Positions 30,934-62,485 of a stretch of DNA of 64,000 nt are shown in pieces. The first letter of the stretch is position 1. Every line of letters starts with the position of its first letter. The translations under genes and the position numbers were made by a program. The notes under the pieces were generated by a model. The model saw only the letters and a program-made list of their open reading frames with translations, had not been told where the DNA came from and did no database searches. Origin of the DNA: Thermodesulfobacteriota bacterium (GTDB taxonomy: Bacteria > Desulfobacterota_D > UBA1144 > Nemesobacterales > Mycalebacteriaceae); contig OZ245366.1 of NCBI GenBank assembly GCA_965226585.1, positions 335,298 through 399,297 of the forward strand, in the 5' to 3' direction.

Positions 30934-31933
30934 CCTTCCGGTTGTTGCCTCTCTCTGTTTTTTGCTGATTTTCTGCGCCGCGCAGAACTCCGCCGCAAGG
31001 AGTTTTGAGCAAAAAACCCGCGCGGCGGCGGAGACATTCGCAAAAAGTTTTGTGCTTTTTCTCCCCGCCGGATACACGGTTGGCGTTGAGAAATCCGGCG
31101 CGAAAAGACAGAGAGGGTTTATAAGCGGAAGGTTTGTTTTCAAATCCCCCAAAGGGAAAAAGGCGGACGTTCCGCCCGTTGCGTTTCTTCTGACTTCAGA
31201 CGGAAAGTATTTGATTCTGGGAACAGACAAAGTGGTTGGCACGGCTGACCTTGAAGGCTCAGACCTTTCCGGATTCGCCAAAATCCCAAATTTCTTCAAA
31301 GAGGCGCCGGTGGTTCTTTTCTCAAAAGACGGGCGGATAATCGCCGCGAACAACATTCTTGAAGTCGGCGCGGATTACGCCCTGAAGAACAGGCGGAAAA
31401 TGTCATTCAAAAACTCCCCGGTGCTGGGAGACCCGCGCGCCGAGGTGTCAATTGTTGAGTATTCGAACTTTCAATGCCCCTACTGCAAGGAGGCGCTTTT
31501 TTTAATCAGGGATGTTCTGGATAAGTATGAGGGCAAGGTGAGGCTTGTGTACAAACACCTTCCGGCAAGTTTTCATGAGTGGTCGTACCCCGCAGCCGCC
31601 GCTTCGTACTGTTTTGCCAGATTCGGGGGCAACAAGGCGTTCAGGTATTTTCACGATGAGGTTTTCAGGCATCAGGCATCCATAACTCCGCAAAACTACG
31701 CCAAACGCTTTGCCGCCCTCGCGCGCCGGTCGGGGCTTTCGCCGGGGCGCATATCAAAATGCATGGATTCATCCGAAGCAAAGGATATTATCAGTCGCGA
31801 CATAAAAGAGGCGGAATCGCTGGAAGTGGAAGGAACTCCAACGTTTTTTGTTGACGGAATCAGGGTTCCCGTGGACGCGGATTTGCTCAAGCGGGCAATT
31901 GAGATACGTCTTTCCCGCAGGGGTTTACAATGA
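30897..31933 (+). CDS. DsbA-family thiol:disulfide interchange protein (signal peptide, CPYC active site)
   Basis: A signal-peptide-like N-terminus follows the internal ATG near 30897. The thioredoxin-fold motif FQCPYC is present. The track start at 30863 overlaps the purB 3' end. Confidence 0.7.
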
Positions 31934-31943
31934 AAGGGGCGAT

Positions 31944-33155
31944 ATGGATTTTATAGAACAGGCGGGAAAAGCGGTAAGGCGGAAAGCCCCGGAATTGCGG
32001 GACTGGGAGGCGGAGCATCTGTCGAAAATACTGGCGCCTTTTTATTCCTCCGCCGACCTCAGGGTTTCAGAGAAAAAGTGCGCCGTTGTTGACACAAACA
32101 TCTTTCCCGCCGGTTTCAACAACCTTTCCGCGCCATTCCGTTCAGCCCTAGGTTCTCTCATAAAAGACGCTCTTGAGCGGAAATATCCCGGCACGGAAAG
32201 TGTTCTTATAGTTCCCGAAGTTCACACGCGAAACCCGTATTACTGGGAGAATATTAAGACGCTTGAAAAGGTTCTGCTGAGCCGCGGTTTTGAGGCGCGG
32301 GTTGGTTTTATTGACGACTCGGTTGAGCGCGAAAAAATCTCATGTGAGACATCGGGCGGCGAGACGGTGGAGCTTGCCAAAATACGTTCCGAGGGCGGAA
32401 AGATAACAGCCGGGGGTTTTACCGCGGACGCGGTTTTGCTGAACAACGATTTTTCCGATGACTGCCCGTCAATTCTGCGTGACGTTGTTCAGCCGATTGT
32501 GCCTCCGGTTGAAATCGGGTGGCATTCCCGCAGAAAAGATGTTCATTTTGAGTTTTACAACTCCCTTGCGTCCGAAGCCGCGCTGATATGCGGAATTGAC
32601 CCCGCCTCGGTTCAGGTTCTCACCCGTCCGGTGGAGGATGTGGATTTTGACGAAGCGGATGACAGGGAGAGGGTTGCCCTTGCCGCAGACGGCATGACCG
32701 GGGAGATGAAAAACGGTTCCGAGCCGTTTGTTTTTGTCAAAAGCAACAACGGCACTTACGGGATGGCGGTGGTTTCGGTTGCGGACGGCGATGCGGTGAG
32801 AAACATGAACGCCGAGAACAGAAAGAAGATGCGCGCCGGAAAATCAAAACAGCCTTTGAGAAACGTGGTTGTTCAGGAAGGCGTTCCGACCGCTTTGCGG
32901 ACAACGGACGGAATGCCCACCGAACCCGTTCTCTACATGGTGGAAACGCAAGTTGCGGGCGCGTTTTACCGGGCAAACTCCAGGAAAGACGCGCAGCAGA
33001 ATCTGAACTCATCGGGAATGGAGTTCCGACCGTTTCCCGATGCGGTGAGCGGTTTTCAGGAGATACCGGAACTGTTTTCCCTATGCGCCAAAATCGCCGT
33101 CATCGCCGCCGGATACGAGATTGAAAAGGTCATGCTGGAAGGGGGCTGTGAGTGA
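31944..33155 (+). CDS. putative glutamate--cysteine ligase family protein (GshA-like, uncertain)
   Basis: About 403 aa from ATG 31944 (RBS aaagggg). Overall resemblance to the small bacterial Glu-Cys ligase family. The assignment rests on weak recall. Confidence 0.4.
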   Translation: MDFIEQAGKAVRRKAPELRDWEAEHLSKILAPFYSSADLRVSEKKCAVVDTNIFPAGFNNLSAPFRSALGSLIKDALERKYPGTESVLIVPEVHTRNPYYWENIKTLEKVLLSRGFEARVGFIDDSVEREKISCETSGGETVELAKIRSEGGKITAGGFTADAVLLNNDFSDDCPSILRDVVQPIVPPVEIGWHSRRKDVHFEFYNSLASEAALICGIDPASVQVLTRPVEDVDFDEADDRERVALAADGMTGEMKNGSEPFVFVKSNNGTYGMAVVSVADGDAVRNMNAENRKKMRAGKSKQPLRNVVVQEGVPTALRTTDGMPTEPVLYMVETQVAGAFYRANSRKDAQQNLNSSGMEFRPFPDAVSGFQEIPELFSLCAKIAVIAAGYEIEKVMLEGGCE

Positions 33156-33199
33156 GTCGGAAATTTTGTTTGTGCGGATTTGGTTGATACCATTAAGAA

Positions 33200-33994
33200 A
33201 TGGCAAAGAATCTGAACCCTTGGATAGAGATGAGTATTGAATACGCGAACCAGCGTAGTTACTTGGATGATTTGTTCACCGTTTATCCGACAATACCGGA
33301 TGGTATTCGTGAAATAGATGAGGAAGTTCGGGAAAGTGTGGAAAAATCGTTTGAAAAGCAGGACAACATTTCGCTTATTGAAAACTTGCTCAAACTTGAA
33401 CTTTTTCCGGTCAAGGACTCGTATGTAGCGTACCTCAGGAGAGACAAAGAATCCTTGAGACGCAATCCTGCCACCGTAGACAGGCTTGCCGGTCGCATTT
33501 ATGATTTGGGGCTGGAGGAAGTTTTGTCTCGCTCTTCCGAGCCGAAAGAAACCAACAGGCAAATAGGCCCGCTTTTCAAACGCTGGATTAGTGGAAAGTC
33601 TCTCGGTGTGAAGCCAGTGAAGTTGGATAAGTTTTTGGAAACAAAAAGAAACGCTGTTCTTGATGCAAGTGATGAAGAGATGAAAGAATTTGCTTGGAAA
33701 AATCTGAATTACAAGCATGACAAAGGGCTCGATTTTGTCGGGCGTTTTAACGGCAAATACGTTATTGGAGAAGCAAAATTCCTAACTGATTTTGGAGGAC
33801 ATCAGAACGCTCAATTCAATGATGCTGTAGCTACTGTAACAGCGCGTGGAGTGAAAGCAGTTCAGGTCGCAATTCTTGACGGTGTCCTATACATTGAAAG
33901 CAGAAGTAAATTGCATAAGGAAATTACCGGACGGCTTAGAAACAAAAATATAATGAGTGCATTGGTTTTTCGGGAGTTTCTGTATCAGGTCTAA
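33200..33994 (+). CDS. putative type II restriction endonuclease (PD-(D/E)XK-like)
   Basis: 264 aa, AT-rich. It carries a D...(E)AK-type motif (GLDFVGRF...VIGEAKF) and overlaps the downstream DNA methyltransferase start by 1 nt (TAATG). Confidence 0.5.
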   Translation: MAKNLNPWIEMSIEYANQRSYLDDLFTVYPTIPDGIREIDEEVRESVEKSFEKQDNISLIENLLKLELFPVKDSYVAYLRRDKESLRRNPATVDRLAGRIYDLGLEEVLSRSSEPKETNRQIGPLFKRWISGKSLGVKPVKLDKFLETKRNAVLDASDEEMKEFAWKNLNYKHDKGLDFVGRFNGKYVIGEAKFLTDFGGHQNAQFNDAVATVTARGVKAVQVAILDGVLYIESRSKLHKEITGRLRNKNIMSALVFREFLYQV

Positions 33995-35124
33995 TGCCAA
34001 TGTTCATTACTTATGAAAACAAGAAGTCTGAGAAAGATATTCTCGACAAAACTTCTGGCGTAGGTCTGGATGTTGTTTCCGGGCAAGGGGCGGCAAACAA
34101 GCTTATTCACGCAGACAACCTTCCAACTCTTAAAACTCTACTTGCCGATTATGCTGGGAAAATTGATTTGATTTACATTGACCCCCCATTTGCCACGAAC
34201 GGACATTTCAAAATCAGCAAAGACAGGGCGAATACGGTCAGCTGTTGCAATGGTGATGAAGTGGCGTACAGCGATACCCTTTTAGGAGTGGATTTTCTGG
34301 AATTTTTGCGTGAAAGGCTGGTACTGTTGCGCGAACTCTTATCCGAACACGGGTCAATTTATCTGCACATTGACTACAAGATAGGGCATTACGTCAAGTT
34401 GATAATGGATGAGATATTTGGAATCGGTACGTTCCGGAACGATATTACCAGAGTTAAGTGTAATCCGAAGAATTTTAACCGTAAAGCGTATGGAAACATT
34501 AAGGATTTGATACTTTTTTATTCAAAATCTCCTACTCCGAAATGGAATGACCCGCGTATTCCTTTTTCAAAAGAGGATGAGGAACGCTTGTTCAAAAAAA
34601 CAGATGATAACGGGCGGAAATATACGACAATACCGCTTCACGCGCCTGGAGAAACTTCAAGCGGTAAGACGAGCGAGGAGTGGAAAGGTATGAAGCCGCC
34701 TAGGGGAAGGCATTGGCGTACCGACCCGGCGATACTTGAGAAATGGGACAATCAGGGATTGGTTGAGTGGTCGGTAAACGGAGTTCCACGTAAGAAAATC
34801 TTTCTTGATGAGAGGAGAGGTAAGAAAATGCAAGACATTTGGGAATTCAAGGACCCGCAGTATCCGCAGTACCCAACGGAGAAAAGTTTGAATCTTTTGA
34901 AATTTATTATTGAAGCGTCATCAAACGAAGGAGATTTGGTACTGGATTGTTTTGCGGGTTCGGGAACGACTCTTGTCGCAGCACAATCTCTGAACCGTCA
35001 TTGGATAGGAATTGACGAGTCTGAATCGGCGATTAAAGTTATCAAAGAGAGAATAAACGATTTGCCTGCCACTCTTTTTTCACTTGTTGAATATGAGTTT
35101 TTGAGAACAGTACAAATGCCATAG
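33994..35124 (+). CDS. DNA methyltransferase, beta-class N6-adenine/N4-cytosine type (motif IV DPPF preceding motif I FAGSGTT)
   Basis: 376 aa, AT-rich. IYIDPPF catalytic motif lies N-terminal to the LDCFAGSGTTLVAA SAM-binding motif, which is the circular permutation typical of beta-group amino-MTases. Confidence 0.8.
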   Translation: MPMFITYENKKSEKDILDKTSGVGLDVVSGQGAANKLIHADNLPTLKTLLADYAGKIDLIYIDPPFATNGHFKISKDRANTVSCCNGDEVAYSDTLLGVDFLEFLRERLVLLRELLSEHGSIYLHIDYKIGHYVKLIMDEIFGIGTFRNDITRVKCNPKNFNRKAYGNIKDLILFYSKSPTPKWNDPRIPFSKEDEERLFKKTDDNGRKYTTIPLHAPGETSSGKTSEEWKGMKPPRGRHWRTDPAILEKWDNQGLVEWSVNGVPRKKIFLDERRGKKMQDIWEFKDPQYPQYPTEKSLNLLKFIIEASSNEGDLVLDCFAGSGTTLVAAQSLNRHWIGIDESESAIKVIKERINDLPATLFSLVEYEFLRTVQMP

Positions 35125-35149
35125 TATTCGACCTGATGACCAAGAAAAA

Positions 35150-35178
35150 TTGACACTTTTCAGGCAGTTAGGTATAGA
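35150..35178 (+). promoter_or_regulatory. sigma70-like promoter (TTGACA-17nt-TATAGA) upstream of the Panacea-domain gene
   Basis: ttgacacttttcaggcagttaggtatagaat lies about 55 nt upstream of the ATG at 35230. Confidence 0.35.
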
Positions 35179-35229
35179 ATGTGAGGTAGCGATTGAACTT
35201 ATTGTAAGTATGAAAATAGGGGGGTTGCA

Positions 35230-35760
35230 ATGCCGAAATCAACAAAAAAGCTAACCGAACTTCTCTTGTATGTTGCGTCTAAATCTGAAGGAGACGGGAG
35301 TTTTGGAATGACTAAACTCAACAAATTGATGTTTTTTTCAGATTTTTCTCACTACAAAAAGACTGGAAGATCTATTACAGACACCACTTATGTAAGAAAC
35401 CATCGGGGACCCACCATTAAGGATTTACATTTGGTATTGAATGAAATGGAGAGTAATCGTGTTTCTGCGATTAAAGAGACAGATTTTCACGGCTATCCAC
35501 AGAAGCGTCTAATTGCACTGAGACGCGCTGACATATCACAGTTTACGGTTGATGAGATAGACACGGTAGGGAGTGTTCTATCACTTCTGAAGGGTCATAA
35601 TGCGTCAGAAGTTAGTGAAGCATCCCACGAATTCGTAGGGTGGAGATTTGCCCGTCAGGGTGAGGAAATCCCTTACATGACTATTAATATATGTAGTCCT
35701 GAACAGGTTGCTGAATCAATGTCAGATGAAGAGTTAAGGCAAGCAAGTGAGTACGACTGA
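35230..35760 (+). CDS. Panacea-domain (DUF4065, SocA/GepA-like) antitoxin candidate
   Basis: 176 aa. The N-terminus LTELLLYVASKS...MTKLNKLMFFSDFSHYKKTGRSITDTTYVRNHRGP matches the Panacea/DUF4065 signature. RBS gggggg upstream. AT-rich. Confidence 0.7.
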   Translation: MPKSTKKLTELLLYVASKSEGDGSFGMTKLNKLMFFSDFSHYKKTGRSITDTTYVRNHRGPTIKDLHLVLNEMESNRVSAIKETDFHGYPQKRLIALRRADISQFTVDEIDTVGSVLSLLKGHNASEVSEASHEFVGWRFARQGEEIPYMTINICSPEQVAESMSDEELRQASEYD

Positions 35761-36049
35761 TAACCTTTTCAATATAATTGAAACAGGCGAATATAAGAAA
35801 AGTATCCGGTGCCTGAAAAGAAAGGATCTCTTTGACTCCAAGGGTCTCAAGTTCGCAAGGGATGCTGTCCGGTGGGCGTTGGAGCGCAGTCCGGAGGATT
35901 ACCTTGTAGTTAATCCTAAGGCATCCATCCGTTTTATAAGAGTTTGGAACCAAAGAGGAACCACCTCGCTAGGGGTTTTTTACAAAGTTTGTGAGGGAGA
36001 TGTGTGCTTACGTGGTGCGTGTGCTACTAAGAAGGAGTGGTTAATGTAG
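35747..36049 (+). CDS. small toxin candidate (RelE/ParE-like pattern), overlapping the Panacea gene
   Basis: 100-aa ORF overlapping the upstream gene by 14 nt. Its C-terminal half IRFIRVWNQRGTTSLGVFYKVCEGDVCLRG resembles the beta-sheet core of RelE/ParE toxins. Weak. Confidence 0.4.
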   Translation: MSTTDNLFNIIETGEYKKSIRCLKRKDLFDSKGLKFARDAVRWALERSPEDYLVVNPKASIRFIRVWNQRGTTSLGVFYKVCEGDVCLRGACATKKEWLM

Positions 36050-36072
36050 TCGATGATTTTGCCTGTGAGTAG

Positions 36073-37773
36073 TCACCCCTCTGCCACCGCGTTATTATAC
36101 GCTTCAATCACATCCCTTCGCGACAAAATCCCCACTATTTTTCTTGACCCCTTGGACTCCACAACCGGAAGTATTTCCGCGGGCTTCTGCCCCAGCACTT
36201 TTACCACATCGTAGAGATTGTCATCGGGGCAGGCGGTTGTTACGTCAAGAGTCGCGAACTCCTTGACGAGCAGAAGGTCTTTCAAATCCTCCTGAAACAG
36301 CCACTGGCGGAAATCCTGTATTGACACTATCCCCGATAAAAGCCCTTCCGAGTCTACAATCGGAAAGGTTGTGAACCTGCTCTGCGGAATGTCTTCAATC
36401 AGTTTTCTCAACTTGGTGTTCTCGTCAACCGTCTCAATACTCGTTCTCATCACATCTTTCACGCTCAGGGAATGCAGGTTTTCGTTCTCTATCCCGCTTA
36501 TCTCAACCCCCTCTTTTTTCAACTCAAGCATGTCCATTGAGCCGCCCGTAAGAGCGCGGGCAAGCGACCAGCTTACAACCGTGCACGCCATCACCGGAAC
36601 TATCACCTGATAACTCTGTGTCAACTCAATTATCAAAAATATGGAAGTCAGAGGGGCGTGCGTGATGGCGGCAAGAAACGCCCCCATGCCCAGAGTTGCG
36701 CAAACGGACGATATGTTTGGCGGAGCGGAAAAAATACTTGACGCCGCCTTCGCAAAAGCCCCGCCCGCGGCGGCTCCCATGAATATGGCGGGCGCGAACA
36801 AACCTCCGGGCCACCCGCTGCCGACCGTAACGCAAGTCGCAACCGGCTTCAAAAGAGCCACCGCCGCAAGCCCAAGCAGCGGAGCGTTTCCCTTCAGTAT
36901 ATCCCTCACGTGCTCGTAGCCGTTTCCAAGAATGTCGGGCGAAGCAAAAGACAGCCCGCCCAGAAGAGCCGCCCCGATGAACAGGCGAATCTTCCTGTCG
37001 CCTATCTTTGAAAACAGGTCTTCAGTTACGGAAAATATCTTCATAAAACCCGCCGCATTGAAACCGATAACAACCCCCAGCGGCAGGTAGAAAATCATAA
37101 GGTCGCGCATGTTAAACGCTTCGTTCTGAAAACTCGGCATCTCAAAAAGCGGAGTGCTGCCGCCCAGAAAATATGACAGAGCGGTTGCGGTCGCAGATGA
37201 TATGACTATCGGAATAAAAGTTGCCGACCTCAGGTTTCTCAAGAGCACTATCTCTTCAGAAAAAAGCACTCCCGTAATCGGCGCGTTGAAGGTTGCCGCG
37301 ATTGCCGCCGCCGTTCCGCACGCTATGAAAGTGCGGATGCCGGTTTTGGACAGACGCACCCGCTCTCCAATCATACTGCCAATCGCCCCGCCCGTTTGGG
37401 CGATGGGTCCCTCCTGCCCGGCGGAGCCGCCGAAACCCAATGCAACCACAGATCCCGCGGCGCGTGAGATTGCCTCGCGCCCCCTGATAACTCCGCTTCC
37501 GAGGTTTATCCTCTCAACAAATCTCGGAAACCCGAAACCCAGCAGGTCTTTCGGGGAAAACGGCAGTTTTGAAATGACGGCAAGCAAAGCCGCGCCGGCA
37601 AAAAGAGGGATGAAAATTTTTGCCCCGGCTCCCGTAAACGGAGAAACGGCAAAGTGGTAGAGACTTTCATACGAGGTGACAAACAGATGGTTCACCCCGC
37701 CCGCCGCAAGCCCTATCACAAGAGCCCCGGCGATGAGAACGGTCTGCTCGGACAGCAGGCGGTTTTTTTTCAT
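36073..37773 (-). CDS. ClC-family voltage-gated chloride channel with C-terminal CBS pair
   Basis: 566 aa. ClC selectivity motifs (GSAGQEGP, GGLFAPAIFMGAAAG) are followed by two CBS domains. Confidence 0.9.
   Translation of the reverse strand: MKKNRLLSEQTVLIAGALVIGLAAGGVNHLFVTSYESLYHFAVSPFTGAGAKIFIPLFAGAALLAVISKLPFSPKDLLGFGFPRFVERINLGSGVIRGREAISRAAGSVVALGFGGSAGQEGPIAQTGGAIGSMIGERVRLSKTGIRTFIACGTAAAIAATFNAPITGVLFSEEIVLLRNLRSATFIPIVISSATATALSYFLGGSTPLFEMPSFQNEAFNMRDLMIFYLPLGVVIGFNAAGFMKIFSVTEDLFSKIGDRKIRLFIGAALLGGLSFASPDILGNGYEHVRDILKGNAPLLGLAAVALLKPVATCVTVGSGWPGGLFAPAIFMGAAAGGAFAKAASSIFSAPPNISSVCATLGMGAFLAAITHAPLTSIFLIIELTQSYQVIVPVMACTVVSWSLARALTGGSMDMLELKKEGVEISGIENENLHSLSVKDVMRTSIETVDENTKLRKLIEDIPQSRFTTFPIVDSEGLLSGIVSIQDFRQWLFQEDLKDLLLVKEFATLDVTTACPDDNLYDVVKVLGQKPAEILPVVESKGSRKIVGILSRRDVIEAYNNAVAEG

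Positions 37774-62401: not shown

Positions 62402-62485
<84 letters not shown>

Follow-up and report, generated by a model that had tools for sequence, protein, structure and literature searches.

Can a small gene that overlaps the end of a Panacea-domain gene be recognised as the toxin of a toxin–antitoxin (TA) pair when sequence profiles fail to see it? The question is raised by a locus in a stretch of 64,000 nucleotides (nt) from a Thermodesulfobacteriota bacterium (contig OZ245366.1 of assembly GCA_965226585.1, forward-strand positions 335,298 to 399,297; hereafter the window, in which all positions are counted). In this locus, a gene for a Panacea/DUF4065 protein of 176 amino acids (aa), termed panA, is followed by an open reading frame (ORF) of 100 aa, termed panT. 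An earlier note, made from the letters and ORFs of this DNA, had proposed that the two are an antitoxin and its toxin. The comparative and structural evidence indicates that panA–panT is, in all probability, a TA module of the PanAT type, in which PanT would be toxic and PanA would neutralise it.

The two genes are laid out as in a classical type II operon, with the antitoxin gene upstream, an overlap of 14 nt (35747–35760), and an acidic antitoxin tail set against a basic toxin. Both the Panacea gene and the overlap were part of the earlier proposal; the ORF list and the sequence bear them out, and the Panacea assignment is confirmed by a match to Pfam family PF13274 above its cut-off. Overlaps of start and stop are also present in the loci of the two closest PanA homologues, designated L001 (11 nt) and L002 (8 nt). 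Coordinates of all features are collected in Table 1.

The 100-aa ORF is a gene

The 100-aa ORF is a real gene, because it has full-length homologues, is under purifying selection and has a confidently predicted fold. The ratio of non-synonymous to synonymous substitution rates (dN/dS) is 0.12–0.19 within the PanT family, and about 0.14 between the window and L002. Relatives of PanT, which contains IRFIRVWNQRGTTSLGVFYKVCEGDVCLRG at residues 61–90, are found downstream of the two closest PanA homologues, with 58% identity in L001 (where the contig end cuts the gene) and 42% in L002. Among 1.84 billion representative proteins, phmmer detects one true homologue (P0008; 99 aa, 48% identity over the full length), and the family is widened by two clades, of 90 aa and of 99 aa, in a profile search. 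Three further phmmer matches (P0007, P0009 and P0010; E values of 1e-13 to 1e-24) were rejected as artefacts of repeats or composition: they are proteins of 2,000–4,600 aa matched via 4–15 short stretches, and P0010, the one that was inspected, is a giant repeat protein.

A word-indexed search of 5.8 billion proteins with the window PanT found nothing, tblastn against plasmid and phage collections gave no match, and PanT patterns found nothing in viral and metagenome contigs. The exact PanT sequence is absent from a public collection of 15 billion proteins in which PanA of the same contig is present; gene calling thus apparently missed PanT, and panT is flagged here as apparently absent from the public annotation of the window genome. 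An antisense ORF of 89 aa (35684..35953) was also considered and received no support.

Some copies of panT depart from the usual length. In L003 (L003:2584-2890) the frame is shifted near codon 69, and in L086 (L086:1744-1917) the protein is shortened to 58 aa; panA is intact in both loci, and either case may reflect real decay or an assembly error. At L065:797-1234 an ORF of the family has 146 aa; its normal domain is followed by a tail rich in Gly, Arg and Pro, and this extension may be due to read-through or a lost stop codon.

Conservation of the PanA–PanT pairing

A scan of metagenomes starting from PanA confirmed 441 relatives, of which the best 80 loci (37–51% identity to the window PanA) were examined. 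A hidden Markov model (HMM) built from a 17-sequence PanT alignment finds the partner in 65 of these 80 loci, and one built from an enlarged 54-sequence alignment finds it in 75. Three of the five partner-less loci have less than 40 nt of downstream DNA, so that 75 of 77 informative loci carry the PanT family. The earlier note had reasoned that a Panacea gene consistently lacking this partner in homologous loci would speak against the pair; the opposite is found, since every close locus that can be read is likewise paired, the L003 copy being frameshifted. The architecture that characterises PanAT systems, a Panacea gene with a conserved partner less than 100 nt away, is thus present.

A PanT-family member lies directly 3′ of the Panacea gene, overlapping or abutting it, in L001, L002, L004–L011, L013 and L014. 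Across the metagenome loci, panT is co-directional with panA in 71, with a projected start −61 to +45 nt from the PanA stop (median −9). It follows panA directly, but in convergent orientation, in four of the 75 (L034:732-1043, L052:1440-1748, L059:524-796 and L087:1578-1874). The genes around the pair differ from locus to locus, and include anthranilate synthase/phosphoglucomutase, tricorn protease, RepA_C, lipoyl synthase and Mur ligase. Relative to the window pair, PanA and PanT identities drop in parallel (70/58%, 59/42–43% and about 41–47/about 18–24%), which fits inheritance as a unit.

As a side observation, in L052 a 283-aa minus-strand gene lies immediately upstream of the convergent PanT gene, and a partial ORF homologous to it occupies the corresponding place in L087.

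Fold and family of PanT

An AlphaFold model of PanT, computed on 17 sequences, reaches a predicted local distance difference test score (pLDDT) of 91.5 and a predicted template modelling score (pTM) of 0.82. Its topology is E-H-H-E-E-E-E: a strand, two helices, a four-stranded sheet and a C-terminal helix of four residues. This agrees with the fold of the RelE/ParE superfamily (N-terminal strand, two helices and an antiparallel sheet of three to four strands in about 90–100 aa). The top Foldseek matches in the PDB are ParE2, HP0892/HP0894, HigB2, YafQ, Mtb ParE2 and RelE, with template modelling (TM) scores up to 0.66; sequence identity to the solved toxins is 7–21%.

At the level of sequence, the window protein itself is silent. 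Compared with Pfam, including PF05016 (ParE_toxin), it gives nothing even at E ≤ 10; the PanT profile A2 yields only noise against PDB sequences and Pfam; and hhalign comparisons with RelE, YoeB, ParE, YafQ and HigB give probabilities below 2%, which is a hint and not a test. PF05016 is matched at E ≤ 0.1 by four of 54 members of the family, and one of its members, L071:1804-2094, passes the gathering score (27.0 bits vs 23; profile positions 2–85 of 89). As only other family members reach PF05016, the link between the window PanT and ParE_toxin is transitive. When the family profile is compared with PDB sequences, a RelE/StbE toxin ranks first (E 0.021) and ParE2 is found at E 0.29, with nearly full-length matches in both cases. 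On the basis of the structural matches, together with the sequence bridge via metagenome members, the PanT family is placed in the ParE/RelE superfamily. It is a divergent branch, with the window clade as an outlying twig, and adds a sizeable group that is invisible to profiles to the ParE/RelE toxins.

The earlier note had seen a loose resemblance of the partner to RelE/ParE-type cores and had drawn attention to its four cysteines (C22, C82, C87 and C92). A ParE/RelE fold is predicted, and the family is divergent; the four cysteines are not a trait of the family. Only C82 and C87, which flank the β3–β4 hairpin, are kept beyond the window, and in the three closest relatives only; the wider family has D and V/I/L at these positions.

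Possible targets of the toxin

A ParE-like, non-catalytic mode of action, in which PanT would poison DNA gyrase, is slightly favoured and is put forward tentatively. Across the 54 family members, the conserved polar positions all lie within the two helices, and no position in strands β2–β4 or at the C-terminus is basic in 60% or more of the sequences. The chain ends five residues past the last strand, which means that PanT lacks the RelE-like C-terminal helix bearing the catalytic Tyr. The missing conserved basic positions in the sheet and C-terminus and the short chain end together argue against a RelE-type active site; in addition, ParE_toxin is the only Pfam model that the family reaches.

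The same module might instead release a ribosome-dependent mRNA endonuclease of the RelE/HigB/YoeB kind that arrests translation, which is a possible, if rather doubtful, alternative. PanT is strongly basic, with an isoelectric point (pI) of 9.5, as would be expected of a protein that binds ribosomes or RNA. Much of the narrower family retains R62 and an aromatic residue (Trp) close to the C-terminus; in the family as a whole, only a part retains them. The catalytic residues of RelE-type toxins are notoriously variable across subfamilies, so that the lack of a match does not decide the matter. Moreover, translation is the commonest target among validated PanTs (Kurata et al. 2022, PMC8832971). 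The choice of a ParE-like over a RelE-like action is a weak one, drawn from the ranking of structural neighbours and from the absence of conserved residues.

The putative antitoxin PanA

PanA contains MTKLNKLMFFSDFSHYKKTGRSITDTTYVRNHRGP at residues 27–61. The PF13274 (SocA_Panacea/DUF4065) match covers residues 30–138 and profile positions 1–112 of 113, and scores 56.4 bits (cut-off 25.7; E 6.7e-15). There is no N-terminal helix–turn–helix or other additional domain, and PanA is therefore a stand-alone Panacea protein. The structural model has a pLDDT of 83.9, and residues 1–150 are globular. The best structural match of this core is the C-terminal domain of DarG, which binds the toxin DarT.

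The core is followed by an acidic C-terminal tail. Its net charge of −6.6 is opposed by one of +6.5 in PanT, and the tail is conserved across close homologues. In the model, it is a candidate toxin-wrapping element with a putative neutralising role. Two modes of neutralisation have been described for PanAs: stand-alone Panacea domains act directly, and other PanAs act via C-terminal helices (Ernits et al. 2023, PMC10440598). Either mode could apply to the PanA of the window.

Proposed mechanism

From these properties, the following mode of action can be proposed. panA and panT would form a bicistronic, translationally coupled type II TA module. Its toxin would be PanT, a small basic protein with the predicted β-α-α-β-β-β fold of the ParE/RelE superfamily. 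PanA would neutralise PanT by direct binding, via its globular core, its probably disordered acidic tail, or both. Depletion or triggering of PanA would free PanT, which would then stop growth.

Several points weigh against this interpretation. No significant match to the window PanT was obtained from Pfam, NCBIfam, PADLOC, PHROGs or PDB sequences. Residues R8, R33, D35/E36, E42 and G52 are conserved in the family but not in the window clade, whose activity could be different from that of other members, or gone. The four loci with convergent genes fit a simple operon poorly, and are odd for a TA pair. PanA has no dedicated DNA-binding domain, and any autoregulation is hypothetical. Finally, tests in E. 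coli showed several predicted PanTs to lack toxicity or to escape neutralisation (Kurata et al. 2022, PMC8832971).

Relation to known systems

PanAT systems were defined in a survey whose 1,268 predicted pairs include toxins that resemble MqsR, Fic/Doc, toxSAS, PemK and ParE; Dataset S1 of that work includes clusters with HHpred matches to HigB2, YoeB, ParE or RelE in which the antitoxin comes first and the PanAs lack an N-terminal domain (Kurata et al. 2022, PMC8832971). The nine pairs validated there include no toxin of the RelE/ParE fold (Kurata et al. 2022, PMC8832971); an MqsR:PanA pair was validated in 2023 (Ernits et al. 2023, PMC10440598). Compared by description, the window pair is like clusters pT15/T14, pT31/T28 and pT70/T59, which have ParE- or RelE/HigB2/YoeB-like toxins, a stand-alone Panacea antitoxin in first place, and a short overlap or gap. 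It differs from these clusters in that its toxin is unseen by sequence profiles, and is linked by its fold and one bridging family member. The comparison with this collection that the earlier note had suggested thus gives agreement with the ParE/RelE-like clusters, on the level of description. One member of the largest cluster, T1 (phage Emek gp16, 161 aa), is unrelated to the PanT family, and so is the protein paired with the nearest phage PanA (vir080).

PanT appears to represent a new sequence family within a known kind, namely PanAT systems with a ParE/RelE-fold toxin, the placement beside the published clusters being by description. Pairs with such toxins had already been predicted (Kurata et al. 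2022, PMC8832971), and this locus leaves the general view of PanAT systems as it was. What is added is that stand-alone Panacea antitoxins are seen to pair stably with the PanT branch.

In ParDE, PaaA2–ParE2, PfiAT and PrpAT, the antitoxin is of the ParD/PaaA2 ribbon–helix–helix or Phd type, and not a Panacea protein; identity to the solved toxins is 7–21%, as stated above. RelBE, YefM–YoeB, HigBA and DinJ–YafQ differ in that PanT has a very short C-terminus and no conserved counterpart of the catalytic sets of RelE (K52/K54/R61/R81/Y87) or YoeB (E46/R65/H83/Y84). DarTG is set apart by the absence of a macrodomain from PanA, and by a partner that is not a DarT ADP-ribosyltransferase; the score of PanA on the DarG model (15.7 bits against a cut-off of 250, DarG positions 164–248 only) places the pair outside DarTG. 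The type VI system SocAB from Caulobacter shares an antitoxin with a Panacea/SocA domain, whereas the partner in the window has a ParE/RelE fold and is not SocB.

A four-gene islet and its decayed relative

Directly upstream of panA lies a restriction–modification (R-M) system of the Tsp45I type, with a Tsp45I-family restriction endonuclease (REase) and a DNA methyltransferase (MTase) encoded by adjacent, overlapping genes. All four genes are intact in the window. They form an islet of 2.9 kb between convergent housekeeping genes, a gshA-like gene and a gene for a ClC/CBS channel, beyond which Pfam identifies further housekeeping genes (for a DsbA-like protein and a Na/H exchanger). The G + C fraction is 0.37–0.45 over 33250–35999, against 0.49–0.58 in the flanks. 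No flanking repeats were found at the islet edges, nor was an integrase. PADLOC models give no match above noise for the PanAT pair, and only two systems lie within the 2.9 kb. The earlier note had described the pair as appended to an R-M islet, in a manner typical of defence islands; the R-M pair is indeed directly upstream, but "defence island" overstates four genes in 2.9 kb between housekeeping genes.

The same four genes are found on metagenome contig L001 (MTase 80% and PanA 70% identical to the window proteins). R-M genes adjoin the pair in the window, in L001 and in the remnant described below; because L002 and other loci have PanAT alone, R-M linkage is a trait of this sub-lineage and not of the PanT family.

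The history of the islet can be read from L012, a Thermodesulfobacteriota metagenome-assembled genome and the only GTDB match in the PanT pattern search, in which the copy is decayed. On either side of the islet site L012 and the window share synteny (about 70.7% nucleotide identity); the homology stops at 33156 and resumes at 36073. In the remnant between them, a Tsp45I pseudogene (residues 1–193, with stops and frameshifts) is joined directly to codon 38 of PanT, and the PanT remnant is itself interrupted. A single deletion of about 2.08 kb therefore took the 3′ end of the REase gene, the MTase gene, panA and the 5′ end of panT. The remnant has diverged from the window about as far as the flanks (68% vs 71%), and the four-gene islet is therefore older than the lineage split; it stayed intact in the lineage of the window and was destroyed in that of L012, disarming both lethal components together. 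L012 thus illustrates cleanly, in nature, how one deletion can take an R-M system and a TA pair into decay together, with both killers disarmed at once.

The pair travels as a unit. In this lineage it came in, or has long persisted, with the R-M system as one islet, in which it would most likely be an addiction or defence add-on. It might, more specifically, serve mainly in anti-phage abortive infection: PanA would sense infection, release or activate PanT and so back up the R-M system. This is unlikely on balance. The physical linkage to R-M genes, seen in the window, L001 and the L012 remnant alike, speaks for it, as does the solved structure closest to PanA, that from DarG, since DarTG is a known defence system. 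A sensory role has been proposed for Panacea, and TA networks have been tied to phage defence (Ernits et al. 2023, PMC10440598). Against this, the PADLOC comparison remained at noise level, most family loci have no R-M neighbour (L002, L004, L008, L010 and L014), and the phage, plasmid and viral-contig collections searched yielded no PanT relatives.

Less likely alternatives

A bolder version, improbable as a whole, would see the PanT family as a large unnamed ParE/RelE branch that has lost all recognisable active-site and ParE signatures and attacks a new target, with the Panacea partner sensing phage and the islet working as a two-layer defence unit gained and lost as a block. The last element is suggested by the single 2-kb deletion in the sister genome L012.

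A still less probable reading is that the 100-aa ORF is a non-toxic relic or a non-toxin partner, so that only PanA is functional. Its absence from the public protein collection, its GTG start, the loss of several family-conserved residues in the window clade and the damaged copies in L003 (frameshift) and L086 (shortened) would all be in keeping with this, and eight predicted PanTs were non-toxic when tested (Kurata et al. 2022, PMC8832971). Yet the frame is intact and full-length in the window, whereas the syntenic copy in L012 has decayed; PanT is 42–58% identical to three independent relatives, with a dN/dS of about 0.14; the start overlap and the ribosome-binding site (RBS) are conserved; and the fold is predicted with high confidence.

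Slightly less likely again is a SocAB-like type VI logic, in which PanA would be a protease adaptor handing PanT over for degradation: SocA, the founding Panacea protein, acts in this way (Kurata et al. 2022, PMC8832971) and the window PanA is also a stand-alone Panacea protein, but ParE/RelE-fold toxins are classically neutralised by binding, an acidic disordered tail opposite a basic PanT suggests a binding interface, and the PanAT pairs tested formed complexes and were classed as type II (Kurata et al. 2022, PMC8832971).

Promoter-like element and other features

The proposed type II module may have a promoter of its own. The TTGACA/TATAGA element that the earlier note had pointed out ahead of panA is present, and TAGAAT, with a 19-nt spacer, is an alternative −10 hexamer. 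A consensus scan omits the TTGACA/TATAGA pair because it demands T at position 6 of the −10 hexamer. L001 keeps TTGACA, 16 nt and TATAGA at the aligned place, although the surrounding intergenic sequence has diverged; this conservation of both hexamers is better evidence for a putative promoter than a consensus score.

A short palindrome follows in the window, and the aligned position of L001 (L001:1859-1873) has a different one, GATATT-GAA-AATATC. Speculatively, these may be an operator or a hairpin in the 5′ untranslated region (5′-UTR), or may have arisen by chance. A structured 5′-UTR was dropped as a candidate, as the z score is −2.8 in the window but +0.67 in L001. A terminator-like hairpin at 35963–35976 was also discarded; it falls within panT, and the region has no more terminator-like sites than expected by chance.

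Table 1. Features of the panA–panT locus and its surroundings. Positions refer to the window unless preceded by L012.
Feature	Position	Strand	Details
gshA-like gene, left flank of islet	31848..33155	+	Pfam
Four-gene low-GC islet, R-M pair and PanAT	33157..36072	.	delimited by GC, homology break vs L012 and Pfam flanks
Tsp45I-type type II REase gene	33200..33994	+	PF06300, E 3.1e-118, full-length match
N6/N4 DNA MTase gene	33994..35124	+	PF01555, E 3.6e-47; 1-nt overlap with REase stop
Promoter-like element	35150..35178	+	TTGACA 35150-35155, 17-nt spacer, TATAGA 35173-35178; read from the sequence, putative function
Short palindrome ACTTA-TTG-TAAGT	35195..35207	+	between −10 and RBS; too short for repeat search
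panA, 176-aa stand-alone Panacea-domain antitoxin (putative)	35230..35760	+	PF13274; RBS GGGGGG 5 nt before ATG
PanA acidic C-terminal tail, residues 151-176	35680..35757	+	pLDDT 53-59; short helix 166-175
panT, 100-aa toxin candidate, ParE/RelE fold	35747..36049	+	GTG start; AAGG 6 nt upstream of start
ClC/CBS channel gene, right flank of islet	36073..37773	-	Pfam
Islet remnant in L012	L012:3344-4192		850 bp; corresponds to window 33157-36072

The only RNA gene detected in the 64-kb window is a tRNA-Leu(CAG) at 62402-62485 on the minus strand.

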